The notes under the pieces: model-generated | What the model saw: the letters and a program-made list of their open reading frames with translations, nothing else | Databases searched by the model: none | Told to the model about the DNA's origin: nothing | Part shown: one piece after another, positions 110 through 36,725 of the stretch | Layout: each line of letters starts with the position of its first letter | How positions within the stretch are numbered: the first letter of the stretch is position 1 | From: a virus | Length of the DNA: 64,000 nucleotides | Direction: 5' to 3' (one strand) | IMG/VR virus record: IMGVR_UViG_3300033066_001842 | Position numbers and translations under genes: made by a program

Positions 110-185
110 GCGATTATGGTATTAACGGTAGTATGCGGGTCTTCCAAACCTTGAGGTTTCAGTTCGAATCTGAATAGTCGCTCCA
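110..185 (+). tRNA. tRNA-Gly(UCC)
   Basis: 7-bp acceptor stem GCGATTA/TAGTCGC, T-arm TTCAG-TTCGAAT-CTGAA, anticodon loop CTTCCAA, CCA encoded; one C·U mismatch in the anticodon stem. Confidence 0.65.
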
Positions 186-186
186 T

Positions 187-261
187 GGGGGTATCGTCTA
201 ACGGTTAGGACGGATGTTTTTCAGGCATCCTATACGGGTTCGAATCCTGTTACCCCTACCA
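187..261 (+). tRNA. tRNA-Glu(UUC)
   Basis: acceptor GGGGGTA/TACCCCT, D-arm GTCT-AACGGTTA-GGAC, anticodon loop TTTTCAG, GGTTCGAATCC T-arm, CCA encoded. Confidence 0.65.
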
Positions 262-370
262 TTTTTTTAAAAGCTTGCAGTCATGAAGCAAGGCGGAAAT
301 TACTGGCATAGTAGGGGTAAACCGAAACCAGTTCAGTTTAAATACTCACATCCGCAACCCCAGATTTTTT

Positions 371-446
371 GTGTTGGTAGCTTAATTGGTAAAGTCCAGG
401 ATTGTGTCTCCTGAGTATGTGGGTTCGAAGCCTACCCAACACCCCA
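371..446 (+). tRNA. tRNA-His(GUG)
   Basis: acceptor GTGTTGG/CCAACAC, anticodon stem CAGGA/TCCTG with loop TTGTGTC, T-arm GTGGG-TTCGAAG-CCTAC, CCA encoded; no encoded G-1. Confidence 0.6.
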
Positions 447-452
447 AATTTT

Positions 453-803
453 ATGAAAAGACTATTATTTTCAGTAACAAAAGATGATTTTGTTATGCAA
501 ACATTTACGGTGGGTGGTAACGGTGGTGGTGGAAAAGATACATCTAATAGTGGTGTACGTCTAATCCATAAAGATTCCGGGGCAGTTGGTGAGGGGCGAG
601 AACATCGAACCAATACCCAAAATAAAAAATCAGCTTTCCTCAAGTTAGTTGAATCCCCCAAGTTTAAAGCATGGCACAAACTAGAAACAGCTAAACGTTT
701 AAATAAACCAGTAGTTGAATCTAAAGAAGAAGTGCAAAAAAGAGTAGATAAACAACTAGAAGAAGATTTACAAAAAGGTCTAGTTGTGGTAGAATATTAT
801 TAG
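453..803 (+). CDS. hypothetical protein (ORF 402..803 trimmed to the first ATG after tRNA-His)
   Basis: ORF track; the 5' end of the ORF as called overlaps tRNA-His, so the Met at 453 is the likely start; Gly-rich N-terminus, no motif recognised. Confidence 0.4.
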   Translation: MKRLLFSVTKDDFVMQTFTVGGNGGGGKDTSNSGVRLIHKDSGAVGEGREHRTNTQNKKSAFLKLVESPKFKAWHKLETAKRLNKPVVESKEEVQKRVDKQLEEDLQKGLVVVEYY

Positions 804-824
804 TAAGTGGGTTTGTAGTAGCAA

Positions 825-1250
825 TTGGGAAAACAGGGGTTTTGCAAACCTAAGTTGCCAGTTCAACTCTGGCCTTATCCACCAATATTTTTAGTGTTTA
901 AAGATAAAGAAAAAAGAAAAGCCTACGATACAAATTGGAATAATTTAAATAGGCAACGTAAAAGAGACATAAATAAGAAATGGAAAGCTAAACAGCAAGA
1001 AGCTTTCCAAAGTATTAAAAATTTGTATAAGTGTTATTTTTGTAGTGAAGCTAATTCAGTTTGTTTAGATTTTCATCATGTCAATCCGAAAACTAAAAAA
1101 TTTAATGTAGCTAAAATGTCTGGAAGTTTTAGTATGGAAAATCTACTTAACGAAATTTCAAAATGTGTTGTTCTCTGTGCCAACTGTCATAGAAAATTAC
1201 ATGCCAATCTTCTGCCTGATCCTTTCGATAATCCCACCCAAGGGATATAA
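825..1250 (+). CDS. HNH homing endonuclease
   Basis: CYFCSEANSVCLDFHHVNP...CANCHRKLH: HNH motif with paired Cys zinc knuckle; located inside the tRNA cluster. Confidence 0.7.
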   Translation: MGKQGFCKPKLPVQLWPYPPIFLVFKDKEKRKAYDTNWNNLNRQRKRDINKKWKAKQQEAFQSIKNLYKCYFCSEANSVCLDFHHVNPKTKKFNVAKMSGSFSMENLLNEISKCVVLCANCHRKLHANLLPDPFDNPTQGI

Positions 1251-1287
1251 TATTTTTGCGTTTTCACCCCACATTTTAATTTTTAAG

Positions 1288-1361
1288 CTCCCTTAGTTCA
1301 ATGGTAGAATGCGCCCTTTGTATGGCCGTGACGTGGGTTCGATTCCTACAGGTAGCCCCAT
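1288..1361 (+). tRNA. tRNA-Thr(UGU)
   Basis: acceptor GCTCCCT/AGGTAGC (one C·U mismatch), D-arm GTTC-AATGGTA-GAAT, anticodon loop TTTGTAT, T-arm GTGGG-TTCGATT-CCTAC, CCA encoded. Confidence 0.5.
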
Positions 1362-1375
1362 TTTGAAAGGTTTTT

Positions 1376-1594
1376 ATGAGTAGAACTTTACGAAGACGAT
1401 CCAATTGGTTTTGGGATAATGCCTTTAAAAAAGTCCACAGGGACAGAGGTGGTGTTAATCCTTATGGACCTAGTTTTTACAAACACTGGTTCACCAAGTC
1501 TAATAGATTAGATTGGAGAAAGTTGCTAAAAAATAAAGATTTTGATTTTGATGATTTTGTTGCCCCAATACGCGAATTAGGCTATTGGTGGTAA
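1376..1594 (+). CDS. hypothetical small protein
   Basis: 72-aa ORF between tRNA-Thr and tRNA-Pro; W-rich, no motif. Confidence 0.35.
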   Translation: MSRTLRRRSNWFWDNAFKKVHRDRGGVNPYGPSFYKHWFTKSNRLDWRKLLKNKDFDFDDFVAPIRELGYWW

Positions 1595-1597
1595 TTT

Positions 1598-1671
1598 CGA
1601 GGTAAGGTGTTATGGCCGCACTCCAGTTTTGGGAACTGGAAGTCTAGGTTCGATTCCTAGTACCCCGACCA
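1598..1671 (+). tRNA. tRNA-Pro(UGG)
   Basis: acceptor CGAGGTA/TACCCCG (A3·C70 mismatch), perfect anticodon stem CCAGT/ACTGG with loop TTTGGGA, T-arm CTAGG-TTCGATT-CCTAG, CCA encoded. Confidence 0.65.
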
Positions 1672-1679
1672 TTTTTTTT

Positions 1680-1753
1680 GGTGATGTATCATAATGTAAT
1701 GAGCCACGCTGTCTACGTGTACTATGAGGGTTCAAGTCCCTTCATCATCGCCA
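1680..1753 (+). tRNA. tRNA-Asp(GUC)
   Basis: acceptor GGTGATG/CATCATC (one G·U), D-arm TCAT-AATGTA-ATGA, anticodon loop CTGTCTA, T-arm GAGGG-TTCAAGT-CCCTT, CCA encoded. Confidence 0.55.
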
Positions 1754-1830
1754 CTCCCTTGTAGCTTAACTGGCAAAGCATTCCGCTGTTAACGGAAAGG
1801 ATATAGGTTCGAATCCTATCAACGGAGCCA
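1754..1830 (+). tRNA. tRNA-Asn(GUU)
   Basis: acceptor TCCCTTG/CAACGGA (one mismatch), anticodon stem TTCCG/CGGAA with loop CTGTTAA, T-arm ATAGG-TTCGAAT-CCTAT, CCA encoded; abuts the previous tRNA. Confidence 0.65.
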
Positions 1831-1881
1831 TTTTAAAACCTCTAATATCTGTTAAAATAGGTATTAGAGGTTTTTTTATTT

Positions 1882-2526
1882 ATGCCAATGAAAACGATTT
1901 CCCTTAAAAACATGCTTCCTCATGGAGTAGTTGTTTATCCCAACCAAGCCGAATGGATTAGATTACAAGCAGTTATCCCACCTGTAGACGATACAAAACC
2001 CCGCAAAATCTGGCAAGATTCCACAGCATATTATGTGGATATTTTCAATCCAGGGGCGGGAGATGCTAAAGAGTATTGGATTCTTATGCCAGAACTGTTA
2101 CCCCTTGACCATGTAGACGTGAAAAACTTCTACCTCGAAACAAACAGTTGGAGAGCTTATCAAACAATGATTGAACATTCCTACGCCTTTGTTGGGGGAG
2201 TTCCCTATTGCAAAAAAGTAACTCTGGATAGTATTACCGCAATTAACGCAAACTTCACCCTCAACAATCCCCAAGAAATTACACCACCTGTATATATGGG
2301 AATTGCTAATATGCCCCTTATCCTGTTACCACCCAAATTTACAGGTGAAGTATGCGGAGTAACCTACCAAGAGTTTCTACAAAATCTTCCAAAGGTAGAC
2401 GGGGATGAAGCGGTTCTATCAAAGATTGATACCGTGATGAAAAACACTATGTTCACCCCCAAGCAAAAAGTGGATGCTATCCGTTATTTGGTAACATCCA
2501 CAGTAATTAAGCAGCCCTTAATCTAA
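1882..2526 (+). CDS. hypothetical protein
   Basis: 214-aa ORF preceded by a hairpin plus T-run; no motif recognised. Confidence 0.45.
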   Translation: MPMKTISLKNMLPHGVVVYPNQAEWIRLQAVIPPVDDTKPRKIWQDSTAYYVDIFNPGAGDAKEYWILMPELLPLDHVDVKNFYLETNSWRAYQTMIEHSYAFVGGVPYCKKVTLDSITAINANFTLNNPQEITPPVYMGIANMPLILLPPKFTGEVCGVTYQEFLQNLPKVDGDEAVLSKIDTVMKNTMFTPKQKVDAIRYLVTSTVIKQPLI

Positions 2527-3187
2527 CCAACTCTTCGTATCTATCTAGAAACATTTGTTTAGATTCATCTGGATAAGCAAAGCTTTTAAATCCAGGGTGT
2601 TTCTTTCGAATATGTTCTGGAATTTCTTTGAAACCAAACAATGCCTCAAGTGGTACTTTTTCCCCGCCAGTTAAAGTTATCATTTGGGGCATTAATCTTT
2701 CTGCCTCAATTTGCAAACAGTAACTATCGGCTTCATGTACTGCGGGTGGCAGAGGATATACAGTATTAAAAGCCGCTGCACTCGCTAACATAATACCCTT
2801 TTCCAAAGTTGTGTAACCATACAATTCGTACATCCGTTTAATGGGACGTGCGATATCATTCAAATAAGCTTCAGAAGCATCATGTAACAGACCCTCTAAA
2901 GCGTACTCTTCAGGACACAAATAGCTAACCGCTATAGAGTGTTCGGTCACGCTATAGAAATAGTTACTGTGTCCTGTCCATCTACAAAGCAGCGATAAAG
3001 CATGAGCTATATCAACAATGTTAAAATCTTGTGGTCTTGGGTGTCCAGGATAAAATTGTTTTCCTGAATGTGTAATGATAAAATTGTCCTTAGAACAGTG
3101 GTACTTGTTCTTCGGGATCTTTTGGCTTTCCCTTAAAGGGCTTTTTATAAGCTTCTGTTCTAGGGTATTTAACTCGTAAATCTCCAT
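2507..3187 (-). CDS. HD-domain phosphohydrolase
   Basis: HSIAVSYL...LLHDASEAYLNDI: H...HD...D metal-binding pattern of the HD superfamily, comparable to YfbR-type 5'-nucleotidases. Confidence 0.5.
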   Translation of the reverse strand: MEIYELNTLEQKLIKSPLRESQKIPKNKYHCSKDNFIITHSGKQFYPGHPRPQDFNIVDIAHALSLLCRWTGHSNYFYSVTEHSIAVSYLCPEEYALEGLLHDASEAYLNDIARPIKRMYELYGYTTLEKGIMLASAAAFNTVYPLPPAVHEADSYCLQIEAERLMPQMITLTGGEKVPLEALFGFKEIPEHIRKKHPGFKSFAYPDESKQMFLDRYEELVRLRAA

Positions 3188-4013: not shown

Positions 4014-4030
4014 GAATCCTCCAAATCAAA

Positions 4031-4477
4031 TTAATTTCCAGTAATAAGGTTTCTCAAAATCCCAATGCGGGAGGGTTTAGGATCTGGAGCTACATAAGTG
4101 TTAGGTTCGAAAGCGGCTGTTTCTTCCTCAATCTTAATAAGTTCTGGCATAGTAACAGCTTCTAACCTCTCCAACTCGCAAGCTGTGGCTACAAACCAAC
4201 CAACTTTTGCTAGATCATCCTCTGGTACACCATCTTTAATTTCCCCAATGTATTCATCAAATTCCAGTTGGTGAATATATATCTTAAGGTGTTTCAAAGC
4301 ATGGTTGGCTCTTTCCAATTGGTACTCTTTATTATTAATACCCTTGCGCCAATTGTTGCGATCATACTTAACCTCACCCTCTCGGAAAATTTTTCCAATA
4401 CGCTTTTCAGCTTCTAGCGGAATCTGTGTTAAATCAAAGTTTTCAATATCAGTTTTAACTGCCATACATTTTACCAT
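4031..4477 (-). CDS. hypothetical protein
   Basis: 148-aa ORF in the minus-strand block. Confidence 0.4.
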   Translation of the reverse strand: MVKCMAVKTDIENFDLTQIPLEAEKRIGKIFREGEVKYDRNNWRKGINNKEYQLERANHALKHLKIYIHQLEFDEYIGEIKDGVPEDDLAKVGWFVATACELERLEAVTMPELIKIEEETAAFEPNTYVAPDPKPSRIGILRNLITGN

Positions 4478-6798: not shown

Positions 6799-9630
6799 TT
6801 ATTTAATCCTCTTGATTTGAGCCCAGTTGGCTCCTCTATACATTTTCACAGGACACCAAAATCCTTTAATCCTCTTATCCTCTTGTTCCATAACCGAAAG
6901 AAACTCTATACATTGTTCGTCTGTCCAAACCTTTGGCTTCTCAAATACCAACTCATCGTGGACTTGCAAAAGTGGAACACCATCCATACCATACCTATCA
7001 AAGAAATTAATCATATCCCCTTGAACGTGATCGGCTGAAGTTCCTTGCCCCAAGAATGAAAACGCTTGTTTTGCACATTCCAAAGGCTCATCTTGCAATC
7101 TAATAAATCTACCAGTAGCAGCCTTTAGAATACCAGTTTTTTCAATCTCTTGCAATACCCTCTGTTGCCATTCCCGAATAATCTTAAACTTTCCAAAGTA
7201 TTTCCCTTCCAACAAATCATTAGCTTTGGCACGAGCCTCTAATGACGTATCTTTAAAAATACGTTGGGCCAAATTTACACCAGAAAAAGCAATAATTCCG
7301 CCAGCGTATTCCCAATCATAGTAGGGTACAATCGCCCCCATCTTAATTGCCGCTTTAATCTTGGGTTTAGCTAAGTCCTCTTCTCTCAATAAGATAATAC
7401 CTTCCCCATAATTGCTACCATGGGCCACAGATTTAGCTACCGCTCTCTCCGTTTTGCCCAACATCTTAGCGGCGTCTTTGAATGCCCCATCAGAAACGTT
7501 TACAATCCATTGGAAAGCATCTTTTTCAATCTTGTATGTATCAAATCCGGCATACCACATACAATTATGAGAATAAAAACCATTAGATATATAAGTTTTA
7601 GACGTAGTAGTAATGCAAACTAATGGTTGTGGATTATCATATTCTATAACATTTAATACAGTAGCTCGCCCCTCACCATTTTTACCCCAAGTTCTCTTAC
7701 CATTCCATATTTTTTTAGATTTTTGTAAAAGTCTCTCTGGCCTTTTTTCTCCTAAAAAACGCAAACTATTCCAGATACCTGTTAATTGTATTGTTTTATG
7801 TGTTTTTCTGTATTGAGGTTGTTTCTTTTTTATTGAAATAGAAAAATTAAAACAATCTTTATAAAGAAGTTTTTCTACTTTATCAAAAATAGGTCCATCA
7901 GCTTGCCCAAATTGCACTCCACCAGAAGAAACGCTACCTTCACCATCAAAAATACCAGCAATATACCCATCATTAAATTGTGTTTTTGTAGTCCAAGGTT
8001 CAGCAGTAAATGGTAAAATATCACCAGTTACAATATCTTTCATTTCTACCCAAACCCTAGATAAATAACCTTTTTTTGACTTACGCAAAACAACTACTAA
8101 ATGGTCATCAGCGGCAGTTAGACTACCTCTATTGGTTTCAATAGTAAAAGTTTTTTTTCTTAAGAACTGAAGGTCAGTAATAGAACTTTCTTTAAATCTA
8201 GTACCTCTATTTCCTTGATCTTGGTTTTCATCAAATCCAATCAATTTATCATCTACAAATAAATCTTTAGCATAAATCCAAGTTAAATCTTCTTTCAATA
8301 TTTTTGTGTAGGGATCTACGCACATACGGAATTCCAAATTGGACTTATCAGCTTTAATCAAACATTGGTCATCCCTTTTTGGAATAATAGCAACCCTGGC
8401 TTGAGCAAAGGGGGATTGTTCCTCTTGTGGTGTATCCTCATCATATCCAGGAATATTTTGGAAATTAGGATCTTTAGAACTAAAACGCCCAGTACTTGTA
8501 CCAATAACAATAAATCGCGGATGCATTAAACCGTCATCCCCGAAAAATTTATCGTCAAACCAACTCTTAAAGCCTTTACCCGCACCCTTGTATTGGTACG
8601 CTTTTATCAACAATTGATAGGGTAATGGGTGACTGTCAATTCCCTGTACAAATTCGGTGAGCCCAACATCATTATTATCGGCTAACTCTGTTAGGGCTTT
8701 TTCAATAGCTTCTGCATTAAATTTATCAAGAAAGATCTTGTGCTTTTTGAAATAGTTAACAGCAGCAGCAGGAGCATTAGGATTAAAATGTTCATATTTC
8801 TTAGTTTTTCCGCTCTGTGTATAGGGGAAAAGCTTTTCTTTTTCGTCATCGCTAATCTTATCCAATCTGGCAATTAGATCACGATCTACGCGAACTCCAC
8901 CCTTTTGCATCAAATGAGCAATATAGGAAACCTTCAAAAGATCCCGATAGAATTGATAGGGAACACCCTTCTCTTCCATCTCTTTCAGCATTTCTATAAA
9001 GCCCTCGCGTGCCACATAACTATCCATGGCATTGTAACCAAAGACTTTATGGCTTGGACAGGGGCCAGTACATGTGACGCCACGACACATTTTAAACTGA
9101 GGCAACCCACAATAGAATGTGTTCATTGTCCACAAATTAAGGAATCCTAAGCTTCCTTTTTCTCCACCAACCTTTCCCCCGCTACTCTGTTTCACCAAAT
9201 CCTGATTCAACAAAAAGTGGGTAATCATCCCATCTTCAAAGCAATCTAGGGAAATCTCTCGCCCAAGTACTTTCTCAATAACTTCTTTTTCAGCCCCAAT
9301 AACAGAATAGCCAACCAATCTAGTCATACCTAATTCCGCCACCTGTACAATAAAGTCTACAACTTCTTTACTGTAAGGGGCGGAGGCAGCTAAATTATGG
9401 TTGGCTAAACCTGTAATGGTTGGCTTATTAGTTTTGGGATCGAACTCAAAATCTATTCCCGTAAACTCAGAGGGATTCTCTAAAATTTCACGCAAATATT
9501 TATTCCCTTCGGCATACTTTGGCCAAAAGGATTTTCCATCAAGTGATTTCGAGTTCTCAATACTTGTGAAAAGATTTAACTGTACTTCACGATTCCCGTA
9601 AAGGTCTATCTCTTCGAATCTCTTTGACAT
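6799..9630 (-). CDS. family A DNA polymerase (Pol I-like) interrupted by an intein
   Basis: Pol A motif A DKSNLEFRM (cf. DYSQIELRI), motif B RAVAKSVAHGSNYGEG, motif C LQVHDELVF; the 943-aa length is inflated by a ~253-aa insert. Confidence 0.75.
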   Translation of the reverse strand: MSKRFEEIDLYGNREVQLNLFTSIENSKSLDGKSFWPKYAEGNKYLREILENPSEFTGIDFEFDPKTNKPTITGLANHNLAASAPYSKEVVDFIVQVAELGMTRLVGYSVIGAEKEVIEKVLGREISLDCFEDGMITHFLLNQDLVKQSSGGKVGGEKGSLGFLNLWTMNTFYCGLPQFKMCRGVTCTGPCPSHKVFGYNAMDSYVAREGFIEMLKEMEEKGVPYQFYRDLLKVSYIAHLMQKGGVRVDRDLIARLDKISDDEKEKLFPYTQSGKTKKYEHFNPNAPAAAVNYFKKHKIFLDKFNAEAIEKALTELADNNDVGLTEFVQGIDSHPLPYQLLIKAYQYKGAGKGFKSWFDDKFFGDDGLMHPRFIVIGTSTGRFSSKDPNFQNIPGYDEDTPQEEQSPFAQARVAIIPKRDDQCLIKADKSNLEFRMCVDPYTKILKEDLTWIYAKDLFVDDKLIGFDENQDQGNRGTRFKESSITDLQFLRKKTFTIETNRGSLTAADDHLVVVLRKSKKGYLSRVWVEMKDIVTGDILPFTAEPWTTKTQFNDGYIAGIFDGEGSVSSGGVQFGQADGPIFDKVEKLLYKDCFNFSISIKKKQPQYRKTHKTIQLTGIWNSLRFLGEKRPERLLQKSKKIWNGKRTWGKNGEGRATVLNVIEYDNPQPLVCITTTSKTYISNGFYSHNCMWYAGFDTYKIEKDAFQWIVNVSDGAFKDAAKMLGKTERAVAKSVAHGSNYGEGIILLREEDLAKPKIKAAIKMGAIVPYYDWEYAGGIIAFSGVNLAQRIFKDTSLEARAKANDLLEGKYFGKFKIIREWQQRVLQEIEKTGILKAATGRFIRLQDEPLECAKQAFSFLGQGTSADHVQGDMINFFDRYGMDGVPLLQVHDELVFEKPKVWTDEQCIEFLSVMEQEDKRIKGFWCPVKMYRGANWAQIKRIK
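7564..8322 (-). mobile_element. intein with LAGLIDADG homing endonuclease inside the DNA polymerase
   Basis: the insert starts at Cys (LEFRM|CVDPYTKI) right after Pol motif A and ends SHN|C (codons checked on the DNA: TAT TCT CAT AAT TGT); internal GYIAGIFDGEGSV LAGLIDADG-type motif. Confidence 0.65.
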
Positions 9631-13505: not shown

Positions 13506-13638
13506 TGGATGGGGTGAGATTCGAACTCACAACCTCTCGTTTAGCATACGATAAAGTTAATCAAAACGGTTCAAATTTACGTTTGAACTAAAAGGTAGAC
13601 TAACAGTTTTTAGCGCTCTACCATTGAGCTACCCACCC
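13506..13638 (-). ncRNA. tRNA-like RNA with a ~70-nt insert replacing the anticodon arm (element E1)
   Basis: ends pair as a 7-bp acceptor stem GGGTGGG/CCCATCC; D-arm GCTC-AATGGTA-GAGC; T-arm GTGAG-TTCGAAT-CTCAC; discriminator A, no CCA; the insert has a CTAAAA/TTTTAG helix closing a 14-nt loop and a GTTCAAA/TTTGAAC hairpin. Confidence 0.45.
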
Positions 13639-13652
13639 ATAAAAAAATCGGA

Positions 13653-13781
13653 GATTGGTAAAGGGATTCGAACCCTTATTAGCGGCTCTGAATGCAATAA
13701 CCTTTATCTAGTCGGTTCTTATAGAACTAAAAAGGGCGACAAAGATGTTTTTACGCTGTCCTACCATTAGACGATACCAAT
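13653..13781 (-). ncRNA. tRNA-like RNA with a ~70-nt insert replacing the anticodon arm (element E2, paralogue of E1)
   Basis: acceptor ATTGGTA/TACCAAT perfect; D-arm GTCT-AATGGTA-GGAC; T-arm AAGGG-TTCGAAT-CCCTT; no CCA; the insert shares TAAAAAC, a 6-bp helix TAAAAA/TTTTTA closing a 14-nt loop, a GTTC-TATAA-GAAC hairpin and GAACCG with E1. Confidence 0.45.
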
Positions 13782-13856
13782 CATAAAAGAAAATAATTAG
13801 AACTAAAAAGGGCGAAAGAACGTTTTATTCACCACTTCCCCGTATTTGGAGCGCCT

Positions 13857-13930
13857 TTCCAGAATCGAACTGGATACCATTGTTTTGCAGACAATCGACT
13901 AACCATTTGTCTTAAAGTGCATATGGTGGG
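13857..13930 (-). tRNA. tRNA-Cys(GCA)
   Basis: acceptor GCACTTT/AAGGCGC (A3·C70 mismatch), perfect anticodon stem ATTGT/ACAAT with loop CTGCAAA, T-arm TCCAG-TTCGATT-CTGGA, CCA encoded. Confidence 0.65.
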
Positions 13931-13933
13931 GAA

Positions 13934-13961
13934 GGTAAGATTCGAACTTACTATTGATTAA
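13934..13961 (-). other. orphan tRNA 3' half (T-arm plus acceptor 3' strand plus CCA) with no matching 5' half
   Basis: minus-strand read GTAAG-TTCGAAT-CTTAC-CTTCCCC-A-CCA; no complementary GGGGAAG-type 5' strand within 130 nt upstream; the HNH gene starts 90 bp away. Confidence 0.3.
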
Positions 13962-14052
13962 TTATGAGTTAATTGTGTTTACCTATAATTCTTTCAAAGC
14001 GGTTCTAATCACTTTCTTATATCTCTATACTAACATAAATAATGGGAGCCCG

Positions 14053-14472
14053 TCAAGGATTCGATCTTCCATGTTCCCTAATTCTATGACAGTTGGCACA
14101 GAGAACAACACATTTTGAAATTTCGTCATTAAGTTTATCAATAGGACTTAAAGTCATATGACTTACATTATATTTCTTATCCAAAGCATCTAAATGGTGA
14201 AAATCCATTACATAAAAAGGAAATTTTTTATGACAATCGAAACAAGGTTTATTTTTAGCTTCCCTTATAATATTTCTATTTAGTGCTTGTTTTATAACAC
14301 GTTTAATAGCTATTTTTTCTAAACGTTTTTTATTAGTTTTACAATATAAACTATTATGATCTTTTTGACATTGTTTACACCAAGGCTGTTTATAAATTTT
14401 TCCACTTTTATAGCGCCTTATATTAAAACAAGTTAGAGCCTTATTTGTTTGACATCTATTACAAAACTTCAT
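14053..14472 (-). CDS. HNH homing endonuclease
   Basis: CFDCHKKFPFYVMDFHHLD...CANCHRIREH; the C-terminal half resembles the HNH at 825..1250. Confidence 0.7.
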   Translation of the reverse strand: MKFCNRCQTNKALTCFNIRRYKSGKIYKQPWCKQCQKDHNSLYCKTNKKRLEKIAIKRVIKQALNRNIIREAKNKPCFDCHKKFPFYVMDFHHLDALDKKYNVSHMTLSPIDKLNDEISKCVVLCANCHRIREHGRSNP

Positions 14473-14512
14473 TGACTTTGATTCTATTATAACATATCAA
14501 AGTCTTTTTTAT

Positions 14513-14586
14513 GGAAGCGAGAGAAGGAATCGAACCTTCGATCTAACTTTCAAAGAGTTACGTTTTACCAATTAAACTATCTCGCC
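14513..14586 (-). tRNA. tRNA-Gln(UUG)
   Basis: acceptor GGCGAGA/TCTCGCT, D-arm GTTT-AATTGGTA-AAAC, perfect anticodon stem TAACT/AGTTA with loop CTTTGAA, T-arm GAAGG-TTCGATT-CCTTC, CCA encoded. Confidence 0.7.
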
Positions 14587-15408: not shown

Positions 15409-16155
15409 TTAAGCGAACAAATAATTCAGAAGGGTTTTCCCAACCTTAATATTCGTGTCCGCTTCAAACTCGTTTGCACGGGCTCTGGCTTTACGGATGG
15501 CGCGAATCAACATATCACACCGATCCAAAACCTCAGCCTTTTGTGCTGGTGTATACTTTGCTGACCATTCCTGTTTGGTAAGGGTTCCAACAGGAACGTC
15601 TTTATCAATCAATTGAACTTGTGCGGGATGCTTATCAGTAGCAGGAGCCAATGTAAGAACCTCTTTATCTTTCTTGGTTCTCACCCCCGTAACAACTCGC
15701 GCCTGATAAATCCCCTTACCCTTTTGTTCATCTGGGCGGAAAGCTTTAGCAGGATCAAGAGTAGGAATCGCACGCGCCAAATTCTGAACTTCTTTCAAAC
15801 TCTTTTCCAGCGCCAAAAGTGCAGTGGCGGGAATATTCTTCAAAAGAATAGTTCCATCCTCCAACACTACATCGGCTTTGGCTTGTGTGTTGGCCACATC
15901 GATTTGAACTGAGGAATCCATAGCTTTGGCTACAATTCCAGAAACCCAATCCAACTCATGCTCCACAGTGGTTTGAATATCCAACTGCTCTTCTGTAACA
16001 GGAGGACGCCCCTCTTCATTACTTTGAAAAGTAAGCAACTTCGATTCAAAAAGCTGCCCCTTATTAGTAAACGTTGTGGTTAAATCTCCAAGGGCTTTAG
16101 TAGCTTGCCCTGCAAGATTGGATTCTACAGCCAAAATTTCATGAAGTTTTGACAT
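15409..16155 (-). CDS. hypothetical protein
   Basis: 248-aa ORF between the tRNA-like region and the Ro60 orthologue; no motif recognised. Confidence 0.45.
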   Translation of the reverse strand: MSKLHEILAVESNLAGQATKALGDLTTTFTNKGQLFESKLLTFQSNEEGRPPVTEEQLDIQTTVEHELDWVSGIVAKAMDSSVQIDVANTQAKADVVLEDGTILLKNIPATALLALEKSLKEVQNLARAIPTLDPAKAFRPDEQKGKGIYQARVVTGVRTKKDKEVLTLAPATDKHPAQVQLIDKDVPVGTLTKQEWSAKYTPAQKAEVLDRCDMLIRAIRKARARANEFEADTNIKVGKTLLNYLFA

Positions 16156-16520: not shown

Positions 16521-18212
16521 TTAATCTTCGTCTTCAGTTAAGGCTTTTTCCGAATTAAACGCATGAATTACACTTGTTACATTCGGATCAAATCCCGTTA
16601 CATCCAACGAATAAGGATCACTATCACTAGCAAAACCAGCAACACCATAACCAGTAGACTGCATACCAAGAGACATCAATCTCGTTTTGGGCTTATTCAT
16701 AAGTTTACGATAATTTTGCGTTAATGTCAAGGGGTGTTCCCCTGTATTGAAATCGTTATCGGTGATATGAATGAAGCAATCCACGTCTTGCTTGTTCTTG
16801 ATAGCATGTTTAATTGGTAAACCTGCATCAGTGTAACCCGTATTATATTTTTTGGCTTTTGTAATAGCCGTTGAAATATTGTCGGTTTTGGTCAATGGCA
16901 AGTCATTCAGAACACTAGAGAAACATTTGACATCACACCATGGTTCTCTTTTTACAATGGTAAGGGCGATTGTGGCGGCGGCTTCACAGAAAGACATTAA
17001 ACCGTTCGCCATCATGCTAGACATTGAGCGCGAAACGTCAACAGAAACCATAAAGTTTTTGCCAGTAGCGGGGGCAACATCGAAAGAGTTGTTGAAAGCT
17101 TCTTCCAAAGCTTCTTGAATTTTGGGAACAGGTTTCCAGGTTAATGAACCTTTCAAACCTTGTCCTTTTCCATAAGTGCGCAGAGCAAACAAAAGTTTAA
17201 GAGGGTGAATTCCAGCTTTTGTCAATTGCTCAATATTGGTAAGGCGACGTACAACCGTTTTGACATCCTCATTAGTTCCTGAAAGTAAACCACTCGCAGT
17301 TAATGAAGAAAGTTGGCGAACGGTTGCCATGTATGGCATTTTCGCAAGTAGGGCTTGTTGAACTTGAGGCACATTTTTAAACCATGTGGGAATCATTTCA
17401 TGGGTCATATCGGTAGCCCCAATCAATTCCACAAGACGTTTAATTTGTGCGTCAGATTTTTCATTTTCTTTCCATGATTGGATTTCAATGAAAGCTTCAA
17501 TCTGGCGTCCCCCCTTTGTCAAAATTTTAGGATCAATATCGGCTAAAGCTTTTAAAACTCCAGCTTCATTTCCATTAACCACATAATTAATGAAAGAGTT
17601 TGTAATTGATCCTTGAAACTCAGGGTGGGAAAGGCGAAGTAAGTCCTGGTGCGACCAACCATCACGTTGACGATACTTCAATAATTGATAAACCAGTGAG
17701 TCAAATGACTTATCGGTGTACCAGTCACCTACATAACGTTTCAACATGCGGCCCCATCCACGCATTCCCGTAACAATTTCCGCAAAGTGAAATAAATCAG
17801 TACCAGTATTGGCAACATGTTTTAGTTCATTGAGGAACATATCACGAACAGTACGACTAGGATGCGATGCGCCTAGAGCCAAAGTATATAACATTGGTTC
17901 TTTTGTAAGAGCACGACGTTGGCTTGAAATTTCTCGAATCTTTTGAACAACTTCTTTGGGGAAATTTTGAATCATCGCTCGGATGTTCGCCGTATTTTGG
18001 GCCAAGAGTTGTTGCGATCCTACAGCAAAGGTATGATTTTCCACACCCAAGATAAGGAATTTTTCGAGAAACTGTTCAGGAGTAAGTTTCAGTGAGTATC
18101 CGCCCCCAAAATTAGGAACAGAGAACTTTGCATTTTTCCCCGTAACAGGTTTTGTTACAGGATTGCTTTTTGCAGTTTTGTTTTTCTTTTGAGAGTAAGT
18201 AGAAATGGGCAT
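16521..18212 (-). CDS. Ro60/Rsr-like protein (TROVE domain plus C-terminal vWA)
   Basis: 563 aa; ~370-aa N-terminal helical-repeat region followed by a vWA fold with MIDAS VSVDVSRSMS (DxSxS); size and domain order match Ro60 orthologues. Confidence 0.55.
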   Translation of the reverse strand: MPISTYSQKKNKTAKSNPVTKPVTGKNAKFSVPNFGGGYSLKLTPEQFLEKFLILGVENHTFAVGSQQLLAQNTANIRAMIQNFPKEVVQKIREISSQRRALTKEPMLYTLALGASHPSRTVRDMFLNELKHVANTGTDLFHFAEIVTGMRGWGRMLKRYVGDWYTDKSFDSLVYQLLKYRQRDGWSHQDLLRLSHPEFQGSITNSFINYVVNGNEAGVLKALADIDPKILTKGGRQIEAFIEIQSWKENEKSDAQIKRLVELIGATDMTHEMIPTWFKNVPQVQQALLAKMPYMATVRQLSSLTASGLLSGTNEDVKTVVRRLTNIEQLTKAGIHPLKLLFALRTYGKGQGLKGSLTWKPVPKIQEALEEAFNNSFDVAPATGKNFMVSVDVSRSMSSMMANGLMSFCEAAATIALTIVKREPWCDVKCFSSVLNDLPLTKTDNISTAITKAKKYNTGYTDAGLPIKHAIKNKQDVDCFIHITDNDFNTGEHPLTLTQNYRKLMNKPKTRLMSLGMQSTGYGVAGFASDSDPYSLDVTGFDPNVTSVIHAFNSEKALTEDED

Positions 18213-18386
18213 ATTTTTCTTTCTTTATATTGAACTAAATGAACGTAAAGGCTAGTGGTATGAATGGTAACTATAAGCCTTATACTGCGGCTCAACACAA
18301 AATGGCTGATTGGACTAAATTAGTTGGCAAGGACGTTGGTATGCAAAGTAACAATAATCGTTGCCATACGGCCCAACCCAATAAAA

Positions 18387-32068: not shown

Positions 32069-32124
32069 ATTGCCCAAATCCAAAGTGTATATTATCGATA
32101 ATGCTACAGTGGCAATTATATATA

Positions 32125-32978: not shown

Positions 32979-32979
32979 T

Positions 32980-33417: not shown

Positions 33418-33472
33418 ACACCTATAATACCAGCTATTCTAAGAGTGGGCAAGGGAAAAGCTTTTAAGCTAT

Positions 33473-34079: not shown

Positions 34080-34080
34080 T

Positions 34081-34311
34081 ATGTCTACATACAATCCTTA
34101 CCGTGTGAAAAAAGAAAAGCCCCTTATTGAAGAACGCCCAACTATGGAAGTGTTACCTAAAAACCCACACCCCCTAGTTGAAACCAATGAAAAATTTCTC
34201 CGTTGGTTTCATAAACAGGCGCAAACTTTAATGATGCCCTTGGTATATAATCTATTATGTACTGAATTTGAAACGCAAAACCCCGGAGTCAAACTAAAAC
34301 GTTTCTCCTAA
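34081..34311 (+). CDS. hypothetical protein
   Basis: 76 aa. Confidence 0.3.
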   Translation: MSTYNPYRVKKEKPLIEERPTMEVLPKNPHPLVETNEKFLRWFHKQAQTLMMPLVYNLLCTEFETQNPGVKLKRFS

Positions 34312-34317
34312 TTTTAT

Positions 34318-34397
34318 GGCCCTGTACCGCCCTCGCCTTCTAAGCGTGAAAAGCGTAACGGATGAAAATGTGGGTTCGAATCCCTCCAGGGCTTCCA
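34318..34397 (+). tRNA. atypical tRNA-like gene, anticodon arm consistent with Arg(UCU), no canonical D-arm
   Basis: acceptor GGCCCTG/CAGGGCT (G·U at 1-72), T-arm GTGGG-TTCGAAT-CCCTC, CCA encoded; anticodon arm CTCGC-CTTCTAA-GCGTG sits only 5 nt after position 9, then a 21-nt unstructured stretch precedes the T-arm. Confidence 0.3.
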
Positions 34398-34417
34398 TTT
34401 TGTTATTCTAAATATAT

Positions 34418-34492
34418 GGCTAGTTAGCTGAGATGGATTAGCTTTGGTCTGAAAAACCAAGCAGCTTGGATCGTTACCAAGACTAGCCACCA
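34418..34492 (+). tRNA. tRNA-Phe(GAA)
   Basis: perfect acceptor GGCTAGT/ACTAGCC, anticodon stem TTGGT/ACCAA loop CTGAAAA, T-arm CTTGG-ATCGTTA-CCAAG, CCA encoded. Confidence 0.7.
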
Positions 34493-34497
34493 GTTTT

Positions 34498-34574
34498 TGC
34501 ACAGATAGTTTAATTGGTAAAACAATGGATTCCAAACCCATTAGATGAGAGTTCAAATCTTTCTCTGTGTGCCA
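34498..34574 (+). tRNA. tRNA-Trp(CCA)
   Basis: acceptor GCACAGA/TCTGTGT, anticodon loop TTCCAAA closed by AATGG/CCATT with an A·C at 31-39, T-arm GAGAG-TTCAAAT-CTTTC, CCA encoded. Confidence 0.55.
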
Positions 34575-34712
34575 ATCTTACCAGAATTATACCCGTTTAT
34601 TTCTTAGCCGAAACAATAGTCTAGCTACCTATTGCGGGGTTCCGATTATTGCATTTTAGGACGCACAAGGAACATGCATTACTCTAGTGCTATAATTCTG
34701 GTATAGTCTTTT

Positions 34713-34787
34713 GTTCCGAGTTAGCTCAAAGGTAGAGCAAGCGACTGATAATCGTTAGACCATAGTTCGATTCTATGACTCGGAACC
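34713..34787 (+). tRNA. tRNA-Ile(GAU)
   Basis: perfect acceptor GTTCCGA/TCGGAAC, D-arm GCTC-AAAGGTA-GAGC, anticodon loop CTGATAA, T-arm CATAG-TTCGATT-CTATG; CCA not encoded. Confidence 0.65.
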
Positions 34788-34988
34788 ATTTTTATGCCTG
34801 AAACAAAAAAACAAATACAAGATAGACTTAAAACTGTAATGCCAATTGGTGACACAGATTTCACAGACATGTCTGAAACATCTTTTGTCATGTGGTTTAA
34901 TGGTCACTGCTTCCTGTGGAAATTTGATAAAGATTCCCAAAAATGGGATTGTATTGACGAACTCTAGTTTATATGTTATGCTAAATGT

Positions 34989-35064
34989 GGGTCTGTAACT
35001 CAATTGGCAGAGTAATTGGCTTTTAACCAAGAGGTTGGGGGTTCAATTCCCTCCAGACCCACCA
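34989..35064 (+). tRNA. tRNA-Lys(UUU)
   Basis: perfect acceptor GGGTCTG/CAGACCC, D-arm ACTC-AATTGGCA-GAGT, anticodon loop CTTTTAA, CCA encoded. Confidence 0.7.
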
Positions 35065-35073
35065 AATTTTTAT

Positions 35074-35148
35074 GGTCCTTTCGTCTAACGGATAAGGCAT
35101 TGCGCTACGAACGCAAAAATATAGGTTCGATTCCTATAGGGACTTCCA
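35074..35148 (+). tRNA. tRNA-Arg(ACG)
   Basis: acceptor GGTCCTT/AGGGACT (2 G·U), perfect anticodon stem TTGCG/CGCAA loop CTACGAA, T-arm ATAGG-TTCGATT-CCTAT, CCA encoded. Confidence 0.7.
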
Positions 35149-35157
35149 CAATTTTAC

Positions 35158-35248
35158 GGAAAGGTGACAGAGTGGTAATGTGCGATTCTGCTAAAATCAG
35201 GCTAACCTCTAAAGGGTTACGAAGGTTCGATCCCTTCCTTTTCCGCCA
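35158..35248 (+). tRNA. tRNA-Ser(GCU)
   Basis: 91 nt with long variable arm; acceptor GGAAAGG/CTTTTCC, anticodon loop CTGCTAA, T-arm GAAGG-TTCGATC-CCTTC, CCA encoded. Confidence 0.6.
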
Positions 35249-35434
35249 AAACTTTTAAAGGACATTTTTATGGCACGTATTTCTAAAGAACCTTGTGAAT
35301 TTTGCAAGGGTGAAAATTGTGTAGAAGTTTCTCAACCTAATGATTGGGATTCCGATTACAAAATCCATTGCCTAAAATGTGATAAAGTTTATTGGGTAGA
35401 CGGTGAAGACGGTTAATCTGCTATCCTAATTTTA

Positions 35435-35529
35435 TGGGAGTGATGCAAGGTTGGTAGACTTGCGCTGGTCTGTAAAACCAGTCTTTCTTAGAAAGTTAAC
35501 ACATTGGTTCAAATCCATTCACTCCCACC
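35435..35529 (+). tRNA. tRNA-Tyr(GUA)
   Basis: 95 nt with long variable arm; perfect acceptor GGGAGTG/CACTCCC, perfect anticodon stem CTGGT/ACCAG loop CTGTAAA, T-loop TTCAAAT, CCA encoded. Confidence 0.7.
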
Positions 35530-35551
35530 ATTTCTTTTTTAAGGACACCCC

Positions 35552-35929
35552 ATGCTAAGACGTTTTTTCCTAACCCTTCTACCTGCCTCGCTTTTGGCGA
35601 AACCATCCCCCAAAATTTCTACTTTTGAAAAACAATGTAGAATAATTGCATCCGAAAAATTAAAATTTCTTCGGGAAAATGTAACTCAACCGTTAGCTAT
35701 TAACGAACATAGATGGTTTACAAATTCTAAATACATTATATGTTATGAAATGTTTTTAGATGGAACAATCTGTTTACCCAATCCGGCAGGTTTAAAAGGC
35801 ACACAAATAGTTTGTTACGAATGTCCTAGTGATGAATCTAGAAAAAATTTTATCAACCTCTTAATCCTCACCAAGGGTCAATATAATACAGGGCGGTATT
35901 GCATCTTCGAAACTTCCGAATTTCTCTAA
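35552..35929 (+). CDS. secreted hypothetical protein inside the tRNA cluster
   Basis: signal-like MLRRFFLTLLPASLLAKPS; 125 aa, 5 Cys. Confidence 0.4.
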   Translation: MLRRFFLTLLPASLLAKPSPKISTFEKQCRIIASEKLKFLRENVTQPLAINEHRWFTNSKYIICYEMFLDGTICLPNPAGLKGTQIVCYECPSDESRKNFINLLILTKGQYNTGRYCIFETSEFL

Positions 35930-36171
35930 AAATGACACAATTAGAACAAATTATAGAATGGCAAGAACGTCTTGATAAGATACATCTTGCCCTATATCCT
36001 GTTTCTAAAGTGACGCCTATACCTGCCTTTAAAAATATAAACGATATCAAAGCTCTCCCCATATGGAAAATTAAAAAACTATATGGGGAAATTTTCTGTG
36101 CTTACTGTGAATCTGATAAAATCCTCAAACGAGACTCCTGCTCCAACTGTGGGGCTCCATACAACCATTGA
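35899..36171 (+). CDS. zinc-ribbon small protein
   Basis: CAYCESD...CSNCG. Confidence 0.3.
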   Translation: MHLRNFRISLKMTQLEQIIEWQERLDKIHLALYPVSKVTPIPAFKNINDIKALPIWKIKKLYGEIFCAYCESDKILKRDSCSNCGAPYNH

Positions 36172-36209
36172 CTACCTTATCAATAAATGATATAATCTTT
36201 ATATGGAAG

Positions 36210-36301
36210 GTGGGCTGCAATGGTGCGGAAACTGTCTTGAAAACAGTCCTATGTAGCGATCACTGCATAAGGGTTCGATTCCTTCACCTTCCTCCATTTT
36301 A
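36210..36301 (+). tRNA. tRNA-Ser(UGA)
   Basis: 92 nt with long variable arm; perfect acceptor GGAAGGT/ACCTTCC, perfect anticodon stem ACTGT/ACAGT loop CTTGAAA, CCA encoded. Confidence 0.65.
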
Positions 36302-36452
36302 TTTATGAAATATGATAAGGTCCATACTATAAATTGGAAAGTTATTGAAAAACAAATTGGAAAACCAAAAACAATTGACGACTATAGAAGGACTTATAAA
36401 ATAATTAACGGTAAATTAGTAGAGACTACTCCCGATTTACCCCACAAAACTT

Positions 36453-36530
36453 TGGCCTCCTAGCTCCAATCGGTAGAGGCAACGGACTTAAAATCCGTAC
36501 AGTCTGGGTTCGAATCCCAGGGGGGCTACC
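36453..36530 (+). tRNA. tRNA with Leu anticodon UAA but short (5-nt) variable region
   Basis: acceptor GGCCTCC/GGGGGCT (2 G·U), perfect anticodon stem ACGGA/TCCGT loop CTTAAAA, T-arm CTGGG-TTCGAAT-CCCAG, discriminator A73, CCA encoded. Confidence 0.5.
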
Positions 36531-36554
36531 ATTTTTGTTGTAAACTAAATATAT

Positions 36555-36630
36555 GGCGCGTTGATGTAATTGGCAACCATACCAGTCTTAGAAACTGTTT
36601 TTATAGGTTCGAATCCTATACGCGCCACCA
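36555..36630 (+). tRNA. tRNA with Leu anticodon UAG but short (5-nt) variable region
   Basis: perfect acceptor GGCGCGT/ACGCGCC, anticodon loop CTTAGAA (4 bp plus one mismatch in the stem), T-arm ATAGG-TTCGAAT-CCTAT, A73, CCA encoded. Confidence 0.5.
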
Positions 36631-36633
36631 ATT

Positions 36634-36725
36634 CCCCGTTGGGAGGATGGCTCCTCAAGCGGCTTTATAATCCGTCACACCAGATCAGTGTCTAGAACGT
36701 AGTTCGATTCTACGGGCGGGGACCA
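36634..36725 (+). tRNA. aberrant 92-nt type-II-like tRNA with a 9-nt anticodon loop CUUUAUAAU
   Basis: acceptor CCCCGTT/GGCGGGG (2 G·U), D-stem GGAG/CTCC, 4-bp anticodon stem GCGG/CCGT closing a 9-nt loop, variable stem-loop ACAC-CAGATCA-GTGT, perfect T-arm CGTAG-TTCGATT-CTACG, A73, CCA encoded. Confidence 0.35.

Follow-up and report, generated by a model that had tools for sequence, protein, structure and literature searches.

The IMG/VR virus record IMGVR_UViG_3300033066_001842 was analysed as a single window of 64,000 nucleotides (nt), with a focus on its extensive set of tRNA genes and on a Ro60 gene that is accompanied by tRNA-like RNAs. The window belongs to a phage, since it encodes a large terminase, a portal protein, a DNA polymerase and HNH endonucleases. 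The terminase is at most 26% identical to that of any deposited phage, and a megablast search with the third tRNA cluster found no match among deposited phages. The window's proteins also occur on a 71,725-bp JGI contig, the longest found, which gives a genome of about 72 kb and leaves roughly 7.7 kb of that contig outside the window. The portal domains of a syntenic relative are of the P22/SU10 type. We conclude that the source is an uncultivated, medium-sized tailed phage of roughly 72 kb. Its tRNA genes form three clusters plus two singletons, among which lie HNH endonuclease genes and a small gene resembling a release factor. Cluster 3, including Leu tRNAs of class I shape and an Ile(UAU) tRNA with an extra arm, is shared together with the Val gene by the independent contigs L011, L022, L104 and L105, while 17 larger loci from more distant relatives, reached through the protein encoded at 42258-42914, held no tRNAs when scanned.

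The tRNA gene complement

With default settings, ARAGORN called 20 tRNA genes, and it made no call in 30 dinucleotide-preserving shuffles of the window. The Rfam tRNA model RF00005, at its gathering score of 29 bits, added 809-881 (Ala, UGC), 39084-39156 (Val, UAC) and a 133-nt match at 13506-13638, and a permissive Rfam search also recovered 34318-34394 (28.9 bits) and 13932-13993 (25 bits). Relaxed ARAGORN settings added a 92-nt gene with a UAU anticodon at 36634-36725, a homologue of which is carried by four relatives, and allowing introns added 13650-13782. Twenty-two genes, namely the 20 default calls plus Ala and Val, count as canonical tRNAs in that they reach at least 29 bits in Rfam or are called by default ARAGORN; Arg(UCU), at 28.9 bits, and the Ile(UAU) gene at 36634, which is found by relaxed ARAGORN only and has no Rfam match, fall outside this group. 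The preliminary description of this DNA had listed about 27 tRNA genes between positions 110 and 36725. Its total of 27 and all of its amino-acid assignments were reproduced, and the number of tRNAs did not collapse under ARAGORN and Rfam. However, only 24 of the 27 elements are tRNA genes, the three at 13506-14009 being something else (see below), and Val (39084) and Met (54901) lie outside that range.

A position-by-position parse shows that all 24 genes finish in an encoded N73-CCA; unless stated otherwise, each was recognised by both ARAGORN and Rfam. Cluster 1, on the plus strand, comprises Gly(UCC) at 110..185 (Rfam 48.4 bits), Glu(UUC) at 187..261, His(GUG) at 371..446 (ARAGORN), Ala(UGC) at 809..884 (Rfam 35.5 bits and relaxed ARAGORN; G3:U70, A73), Thr(UGU) at 1287..1360, Pro(UGG) at 1598..1671, Asp(GUC) at 1680..1753 and Asn(GUU) at 1755..1830. 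The His gene has C73 and no encoded G-1, base -1 being T; bacterial histidyl-tRNA synthetase normally requires G-1:C73. Cluster 2, on the minus strand, contains Cys(GCA) at 13847..13920 and Gln(UUG) at 14512..14586, the latter at a place where relatives also have Gln tRNAs. Cluster 3, again on the plus strand, runs from Arg(UCU) at 34318..34397 (Rfam 28.9 bits) through Phe(GAA) at 34418..34492 (Rfam 44.4 bits), Trp(CCA) at 34499..34574, Ile(GAU) at 34715..34788, Lys(UUU) at 34989..35064, Arg(ACG) at 35074..35148, the long-armed Ser(GCU) at 35158..35248, Tyr(GUA) at 35436..35530 and Ser(UGA) at 36205..36296, Leu(UAA) at 36454..36531 and Leu(UAG) at 36555..36630, to Ile(UAU) at 36634..36725 (relaxed ARAGORN). 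The singletons, both on the plus strand, are Val(UAC) at 39084..39159 (Rfam 43.1 bits) and Met(CAU) at 54901..54974.

No anticodon is repeated among the 24, and in the standard code every one of the 8 family boxes and 16 half-boxes receives exactly one. Family boxes are served by U34 or I34 and split boxes by G34 or U34, plus CCA, CAU and UAU. The genes of the window use all 61 sense codons, and 66% of third positions are A or T, a preference that fits an anticodon set of the U34/G34 kind. A near-complete set had been described as typical of large virulent phages; the set in fact exceeds near-complete, and the genome that carries it, at only about 72 kb, is not that of a large phage. By providing its own adaptor for every codon box, the phage could have its A/U-biased genes translated even where host tRNAs were unsuitable, depleted or cut by defences, and late translation would thereby become independent of the host tRNA pool. 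Host defences that cleave tRNAs are known (van den Berg et al. 2023, PMC10264068). A full one-per-box set at 72 kb would extend near-autonomous decoding to medium-sized phages, and it offers a natural minimal anticodon set for testing against such defences.

Phage T5 (NC_005859, 28-41 kb) provides the closest parallel considered here in that it likewise carries about two dozen tRNAs for all 20 amino acids, mostly with U34 or G34 and with encoded CCA, in a region interspersed with HNH endonucleases, small open reading frames (ORFs) and 'tRNA-like stable RNAs'; about half of its tRNAs also have a stem mismatch. With clustered tRNAs for 20 amino acids, endonucleases and tRNA-like RNAs, the window has a T5-like arrangement, the likeness being one of organisation only. 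T5 has 25 annotated tRNAs in 122 kb, compared with 24 in about 72 kb here, and it duplicates Gln (two), Ser (three) and CAU tRNAs (three), whereas the window phage has one gene per box. By its annotation table, T5 is without Leu(UAA) and Arg(ACG), both of which are present in the window. In addition, the Leu tRNAs of T5 are class II and its AUA codons are served by a CAU tRNA, in contrast to the class I Leu tRNAs and the UAU tRNA found here, and no Ro60 is annotated in the 20-45 kb region of T5.

The single Met(CAU) tRNA shows part of the initiator signature. Bacterial initiators are identified by a 1-72 mismatch, three G-C pairs at 29-31:39-41 and A11:U24. The Met gene has the first of these, as C1·A72, so that its end matches the initiator type, but the remaining initiator features are absent: its anticodon stem (CTAGT/GCTTG) has A29-U41, G30-C40 and U31·G39, and its D stem has U11:A24.

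tRNA genes of unusual architecture

Long variable arms are the rule in Leu, Ser and bacterial Tyr tRNAs, with 4-5 nt elsewhere, and three genes at the end of cluster 3 break it. The variable loops of Leu(UAA) and Leu(UAG) measure 5 and 4 nt, giving both a class I shape with A73, while that of Ile(UAU) measures 22 nt. The Leu homologues in L104 and L105 are likewise short and have A73, and among viral loci that carry the Ile(UAU) gene (120 loci), 75 of 128 Leu calls are short, the Ser and Tyr calls being long. For Aquifex leucyl-tRNA synthetase (LeuRS), A73 and the tRNA core are critical, and removal of the arm chiefly lowers affinity (PMC2377443). Arm length is also labile elsewhere in this clade: Cys(GCA) of L104 (8657-8744) has an 18-nt variable region and a total length of 88 nt, and Tyr(GUA) is short in L104 (9041-9116, 76 nt) and long in L105 (9033-9122) and in the window.

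The Ile(UAU) gene has a compact D arm, A73 and an extra arm made of a 4-bp stem and a 7-nt loop, which reads CAGAUCA in the window. Homologues occur in L011, L022, L104 and L105, with covariation in the acceptor, T and arm stems. A pattern scan detected members of the family on at least 120 viral contigs, where chance would produce about 0.3, and these represent 62 distinct sequences. Three of the four arm pairs are formed in every one of the 62 and the remaining pair in 61, again with covariation. Furthermore, in a sample selected by the D arm and anticodon loop only, ignoring the arm, the loop CAGAU(U/C)A was present in all 87 distinct sequences. The cultured Synechococcus phage S-SRM01 also carries a long-armed Ile(UAU) gene, unannotated and adjoining a short Leu(UAA).

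A tRNA-Ile(UAU) is known from Mycoplasma mobile, where it reads AUA through an anticodon of the unmodified UAU type so that lysidine synthetase is not needed; the same study found that Escherichia coli isoleucyl-tRNA synthetase (IleRS) charges UAU tRNAs poorly (Taniguchi et al. 2013, PMC3575796). The Mycoplasma tRNA is ordinary in shape and its IleRS carries a special Arg, whereas in the phage tRNA an extra arm is present, and its invariant loop includes GAU, which is the usual anticodon for Ile. Given the poor charging of UAU tRNAs by the E. coli enzyme and the GAU within the invariant loop, we propose that the arm might supply a contact for the synthetase. The GAU of the CAGAUYA loop could then be a stand-in anticodon, enabling charging of a UAU tRNA by an ordinary host IleRS, and decoding of AUA would be freed from the host lysidine synthetase.

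A different reading of the same gene is that the long-armed tRNA is charged with leucine and that AUA is recoded, as with the nematode nev-tRNAs (Hamashima et al. 2012, PMC3333845), which share a class II shape with a UAU anticodon that belongs to neither Leu nor Ser. Such charging would suit a class II tRNA with A73; LeuRS ignores the anticodon (PMC2377443), and nev-tRNA-Ile(UAU) is a precedent (PMC3333845). The meaning of the codon was examined by aligning 31 window genes codon by codon with their relatives. At 148 AUA positions in these 31 genes, the relatives have Ile in 41%, Val in 20% and Leu in 17% of cases, which is the profile of AUU and AUC, whereas Leu codons align with Leu at 57-71%; UUA and CUA behave as Leu, and AGA and AGG align with Arg. 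(The NAMPT and Ro60 genes together hold a single AUA codon, too few for testing its meaning.) As judged from these alignments the code is standard, with AUA read as Ile and AGR as Arg. Since AUA behaves as Ile, aligning with Ile and Val as AUU and AUC do, recoding to Leu of the nev-tRNA type was rejected; an invariant arm loop would also be purposeless for LeuRS, and we regard leucine charging as very improbable.

The Arg(UCU) gene departs further from the usual plan. It has no D arm at the usual place; instead, the anticodon arm is flanked by the two strands of a 3-bp helix (CGC/GCG) and followed by UAACGGAU, a segment resembling a D loop. Its 5′ part consists of the acceptor strand, U8-A9, one base, the first 3 nt of the helix, one base and the anticodon arm, and its 3′ part of a 3-5-nt linker, the 3-nt complement, UAA..GGAU.. 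and the T arm. The layout recurs in L104 with a compensated helix (ACC/GGT in place of CGC/GCG), while L105 has a normal Arg(UCU) at the equivalent place. When viral sequences were scanned with this pattern, 58 of 67 matches were genuine, yielding 47 distinct sequences, and the 3-bp helix is fully paired in 38 of these, in seven pair combinations. Of the 46 loci with the rearranged gene, ARAGORN reports a UCU tRNA in just 3. In these genes the 5′ strand of the D stem and the D loop appear to have moved to the 3′ side of the anticodon arm. A known analogue is mitochondrial tRNA-Ser(AGY/N), which also lacks the usual D arm and reads AGN codons (PMC4013460). In contrast to that tRNA, the phage Arg(UCU) retains a 3-bp helix and a GG segment reminiscent of a D loop, both moved to the 3′ side of the anticodon arm, and AGR is Arg in the phage.

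A full-text search of one literature library returned no description of a long-armed Ile(UAU), of class I Leu tRNAs in phages or of a rearranged Arg(UCU). Conserved non-canonical shapes of this kind, such as the unannotated gene of S-SRM01, imply that phage tRNA inventories are under-counted, and they suggest a wider tolerance of varied tRNA topologies, on the part of host synthetases and the ribosome, than textbooks describe.

Ro60 and its candidate Y RNAs

Upstream of cluster 2 on the minus strand, the window encodes a 563-residue Ro60 orthologue (16521..18212) with TROVE and Ro60-type vWA domains, which pass both Pfam thresholds (PF05731, 95.8 bits, cut-off 23; PF25045, 126.7 bits, cut-off 27.7). 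It is 31-34% identical to an actinophage 'Ro-like RNA binding protein', and eight related Ro60 proteins, at 47-53% identity, are encoded on syntenic phage contigs; a Ro60-based search of viral contigs gave one weak match, and an exact scan for the insert motif gave none. Phage Ro60 proteins with Y RNAs are already known (Chen et al. 2014, PMC4201824; Thermus phage phiLo, PMC12135203). A DUF7873 protein (15409..16155, minus strand; Pfam 225.5 bits) is encoded downstream of Ro60. In the window, and in L004 (12398-13138), the only relative in which Pfam recorded it, its gene separates Ro60 from the Y RNA/tRNA cluster, and the protein may be a partner in the Ro60 system.

Just upstream of Ro60, at 18226..18299 on the minus strand, lies a simple stem-loop RNA that could be aligned with six relatives, with compensatory changes at 10 of 18 consensus pairs. 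The relatives have a short RNA between a promoter-like site and the Ro60 start, made of a terminal stem, an internal loop of the GAGUCGAA type and a second stem. At the position of the Ro60-binding motif (GNCGAA, 5′ strand), the relatives read GAGUCGAA or GGGUCGAU and the simple RNA of the window reads GAGCCGCA; the three tRNA-like elements of cluster 2, here named A, B and C, read GAACCG(A/U/C).

The published order of YrlA-type Y RNAs is 5′ stem, T arm, acceptor hairpin, D arm and 3′ stem (Chen et al. 2014, PMC4201824). Four relatives (L004, L005, L008 and L010) have a YrlA-like RNA downstream of Ro60 in this order, with an acceptor hairpin of 7-8 bp; their 7-bp acceptor stems resemble that of Mycobacterium smegmatis YrlA, and they score 33-34 bits against a threshold of 69 for the Rfam YrlA model, RF02553. 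Element B (13506..13638, minus strand) matches the Rfam tRNA model at 48.8 bits with a 74-nt insertion. It is ordered as a tRNA would be, from the acceptor 5′ strand and D arm through a Ro60-type stem closed by a hairpin and a V hairpin to the T arm and the acceptor 3′ strand, with G3·U70, A73 and then ACA instead of CCA. Element A (13653..13782, minus strand; found by ARAGORN with introns allowed) is a paralogue of B with the same tRNA order and no CCA. In both, the acceptor 5′ strand and D arm are followed by GCUAAAAAC..., a closing hairpin, ...UUAUCGUAUGCUAAACGAGAGGUU, the T arm and the acceptor 3′ strand. When the YrlA-like RNAs of the relatives were rotated in silico, they aligned end to end with A and B at a mean column identity of 76%, and we infer that A and B are circular permutations of the relatives' YrlA-type RNA.

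Element C follows the published YrlA order, with a complete tRNA-Cys gene nested in its acceptor loop, that is, between its two acceptor strands. Its 5′ half (13924..14009, minus strand), a partial match to the Rfam tRNA model at 25 bits that the preliminary description had counted among its aberrant tRNAs, contains a terminal-stem strand, the CG motif, a helix strand, a CAU stem-loop, the T arm and CTTCCCC-A-CCA. The 3′ half (13796..13841, minus strand) contains the acceptor 5′ strand GGGGAAG, a helix strand and a terminal-stem strand, the D arm being deleted. The two halves complement each other perfectly, through GGGGAAG/CTTCCCC, TTCTTTC/GAAAGAA and GTTCTAAT/ATTAGAAC. Across the six elements compared, every pair of the acceptor, 7-bp and terminal helices is standard, with many two-sided changes.

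The window RNAs share with YrlA (PMC4201824; RF02553) a location within 4 kb of Ro60, a T arm, a D arm, an acceptor-like stem and a stem with a CG-containing internal loop. A and B, which lie 2.7-3.0 kb downstream of Ro60 on the same strand, have all of the T arm, acceptor-like stem and D arm, and C is without the D arm; conversely, C and the relatives follow the YrlA order and A and B do not. Unlike YrlA, A and B have their halves swapped, which places both RNA termini within the acceptor stem and leaves the Ro60-type stem capped by a hairpin. They are also without an encoded CCA, unlike all 24 tRNAs. By sequence and predicted fold, we read the three tRNA-like elements and the simple stem-loop RNA as probable Y RNAs that partner the Ro60 encoded by the phage.

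Two other readings of A and B were tried and rejected. ARAGORN with introns allowed reads them as intron-containing tRNAs for Lys and Leu; however, homology ties the inserts to the two halves of the Y RNAs in relatives, and there is no conserved anticodon loop. The Rfam YrlA model matches across the A/B junction, where the 3′ acceptor strand of A does not pair with the 5′ strand of B, each element pairing with itself instead.

In strict motif scans, the published order turned up in four other viral contigs and the tRNA order of A and B in no further one, and neither order was found in 185,579 bacterial and archaeal species genomes; 18-base scans for the order gave mostly chance matches and were filtered, and stricter versions returned nothing from bacterial genomes. 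A similar relation between two gene orders and one fold is seen in transfer-messenger RNA (tmRNA), which exists in one-piece and in permuted two-piece forms. The Y RNAs differ in belonging to another RNA family and in having no tag-coding part. RNase P cleaves M. smegmatis YrlA, whose acceptor stem has 7 bp, and the RNA acquires CCA. As single pieces, A and B would attain the fold of that RNA, and they could mature like tRNAs, through RNase P and 3′ processing. The Ro60-Y RNA particles might act on RNA turnover, as in phiLo, where such particles bind host PNPase (PMC12135203). Permuted Y RNAs would represent a natural experiment on the connectivity that the RNA partners of Ro60 need.

Further observations concern the RNAs of this clade. 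G3·U70 and A73 followed by ACA are found in Y RNA B (13506-13512, minus strand) and in the YrlA-like RNAs of L004 (around 13783) and L010 (around 5315), and in L005 and L008 the G·U lies one pair further in; G3·U70 and A73 are features that mark alanine acceptors. A third type of Y RNA, like Deinococcus Yrn1, occurs in relatives (L006, 11700-11870; L005, 3738-3880; L008, about 8070-8190), with a Ro60-type terminal stem that encloses D, anticodon-like and T arms in tRNA order, so that all three topologies occur inside one phage clade. Finally, a promoter-like site at 14027-14056 on the minus strand (TTGACG, 18 nt, TG-n-TAGTAT), 18 nt upstream of Y RNA C, could drive a unit made of C, Cys, A and B; in a promoter and terminator scan around cluster 2, sites were no more frequent than in shuffles.

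Alternative explanations, combined reading and neighbouring genes

Several of these genes score low, and decay offers an explanation: Ala at 809, Arg at 34318, Ile(UAU) at 36634 and the elements at 13506-14009 could be decaying pseudogenes in a recombination-prone tRNA region. The scores (Ala 35.5 bits, Arg 28.9 bits, 25 bits among the 13506-14009 elements and no Rfam match for Ile) would fit, as would the adjoining HNH endonucleases, the loss of the D arm in Y RNA C and the normal Arg(UCU) of L105 where the window has the odd one. Decay would not, however, be expected to leave the Arg and Ile architectures with compensatory changes in 47 and at least 62 distinct sequences on unrelated contigs, nor every helix pair of A, B and C standard while their sequences diverge, and in all four tRNA genes the CCA, the T loop and a 7-nt anticodon loop with U33 are intact. 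We consider the pseudogene explanation unlikely. Because their shapes are conserved in relatives and in many uncultivated phages, the two Leu genes, Ile(UAU) and Arg(UCU) are probably working genes and not products of decay.

Stem mismatches were another feature of the preliminary description, which named five A·C pairs and saw in their recurrence a possible hint of editing or repair. All five are present and none goes away on refolding: Pro A3·C70, Cys A3·C70, Trp A31·C39, Val C30·A40 and Met C1·A72. Two more, Ser(GCU) C27·A43 and Ser(UGA) A49·C65, bring the total to seven. In a tally of the acceptor, anticodon and T stems of 23 tRNAs, with G·U excluded, there are 20 mismatches: seven A·C, five C·U, four U·U, two C·C and two G·A, the non-A·C types including C27·U43 in Gly and Asp, C4·U69 and C29·C41 in Thr, C4·C69 in Asn and A27·G43 in Lys. 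The A·C share of 7/20 does not differ significantly from an even share of 20% (binomial p=0.087) or from the 4/21 obtained with the same script for T5 (Fisher p=0.31), and 13 of the 20 default calls carry a mismatch here, compared with 12 of the 23 tRNAs called in T5. From a Watson-Crick pair, one transition yields A·C as the sole mismatch, the other product being G·U, and G·U pairs are plentiful (22 in the 20 default tRNAs).

Orthologues could be compared for part of the set, no comparable Cys being found, none being recovered for Pro or Trp and none being available for His. Positions 30-40 of Val and 49-65 of Ser(UGA) are paired in L011, L022, L104 and L105, the latter as A-U or G·U, so these two mismatches are specific to the window's lineage. 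By contrast with these, Ser(GCU) C27·A43 is kept in three phages (the window, L104 and L105), and the unrelated contig L012 has a Trp tRNA with an identical A31·C39. Post-transcriptional correction by editing or repair could draw on the existence of seven such pairs and on the position 3-70 shared by Pro and Cys. Yet besides the unremarkable A·C share, the same stems contain 13 mismatches of other types (C·U, U·U, C·C, G·A), which one deaminase would not fix, the A·C sites occur in both orientations and are spread over different stems, those of Val and Ser(UGA) each amount to one transition and have no counterpart in relatives, and no deaminase-like domain was detected by Pfam or PHROGs among 40 window ORFs scanned. 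The suggestion of editing is therefore abandoned as scarcely credible.

An adaptive role deserves more weight. The 5-bp anticodon stem holds 11 of the 20 mismatches (29% expected, p=0.015), six of them at 27-43, and a loosened anticodon stem, especially at that pair, might broaden decoding so that one tRNA reads a whole box. The conserved Ser(GCU) C27·A43 and the recurrence of Trp A31·C39 in L012 point the same way. A non-Watson-Crick 27-43 pair is, however, common in ordinary tRNAs, T5 has the same pattern, and the tRNAs of family boxes are not clearly richer in mismatches (5/8) than those of split boxes (7/16). Fakih et al. 2026 (PMC13092985) lend this idea some support, having found 4-bp anticodon stems to be frequent in bacteria and proposed that they widen decoding; in the same study a C27A tRNA-Trp reads UGA in E. 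coli. Stop codons in the window are TAA in 48, TGA in 15 and TAG in 9 of 72 genes, and because TGA is a normal stop (15/72), a Trp tRNA that reads UGA would be harmful. Adaptive loosening is thus a possibility that we rate as rather doubtful. Most of the A·C mismatches look like ordinary ones, chiefly tolerated single transitions, with one that is initiator-like and one that is conserved at the top pair of the anticodon stem.

Taken together, it seems likely that the window derives from a tailed phage of about 72 kb with a one-per-box set of 24 tRNAs, including working genes of odd shape, with Y RNAs for its Ro60 and with A·C mismatches of an ordinary kind. Several points weigh against this. 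The Ala gene is weak (35.5 bits), with two U·U pairs in its acceptor stem and a poor D stem, and the window copy of Ile(UAU) gets no Rfam match, so that the completeness of the set hinges on borderline genes. The 7.7 kb outside the window may hold more tRNAs and could break the rule of no duplicates. With a single good CAU tRNA, either the initiator or the elongator Met is missing, and the host is needed for at least one of these functions. Lastly, the window reaches 26.6 bits against the YrlA threshold of 69 (RF02553), in the match that spans the A/B junction.

The analysis adds three points: a set with exactly one tRNA per codon box, three supposed 'tRNAs' reassigned as permuted or split Y RNAs, and a pair of widespread architectures that are missed by standard tools or unannotated. 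It is conceivable, although we hold this tentatively, that the displaced-D Arg(UCU), the stand-in-anticodon arm of Ile(UAU) and the tRNA-ordered Y RNAs are together undescribed in the literature searched and overlooked by annotation. Equally tentative is the proposal that such a reading extends to dozens to hundreds of uncultivated phages and at least one cultured cyanophage, S-SRM01.

Among the genes interspersed with the tRNAs, the small protein encoded at 453..803 (plus strand), inside cluster 1, has an RF-1 (GGQ) domain in which GGQ reads GGG. It scores 33.5 bits with the Pfam RF-1 model (cut-off 35) and E 8e-8 with NCBIfam release-factor models. This release-factor peptidyl-tRNA hydrolase domain, with its altered motif in VGGNGGGGKDTSNSGVRLIH, might belong to a ribosome-rescue-like factor or to an inactive decoy. 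An HNH-type endonuclease ORF in the same cluster (825..1250, plus strand) probably has its real start downstream of tRNA-Ala, and shares the motif CANCHRKLH with a paralogue in cluster 2 (14053..14472, minus strand; PHROG 2255, E 1.4e-26).

Enzymes with RNA ligase and PNKP-type domains are of the kind used by phage T4 for mending cut tRNAs. An RNA ligase domain together with a PNKP-type phosphatase domain is encoded in the relative L105 (4704-5285) and in the co-occurring phage contig L103 (8499-9080), and such domains did not turn up among the 40 window ORFs scanned. Two neighbouring ORFs on the minus strand (4031-4477 and 2507-3187) include one with the N-terminal domain of a MazZ-like dATP/dGTP diphosphohydrolase (33.3 bits) and one with a weak HD-type, YfbR-like match (16.5 bits). 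Enzymes of the dATP/dGTP diphosphohydrolase type accompany phage genomes with the modified base 2-aminoadenine; no PurZ-like gene was seen within the window. Between cluster 3 and tRNA-Val, at 36773-39078 on the plus strand, lies a pair of genes for nicotinamide adenine dinucleotide (NAD) salvage, encoding a PRPP-synthetase-like protein and NAMPT, and this arrangement is kept in L011, L104 and L105.

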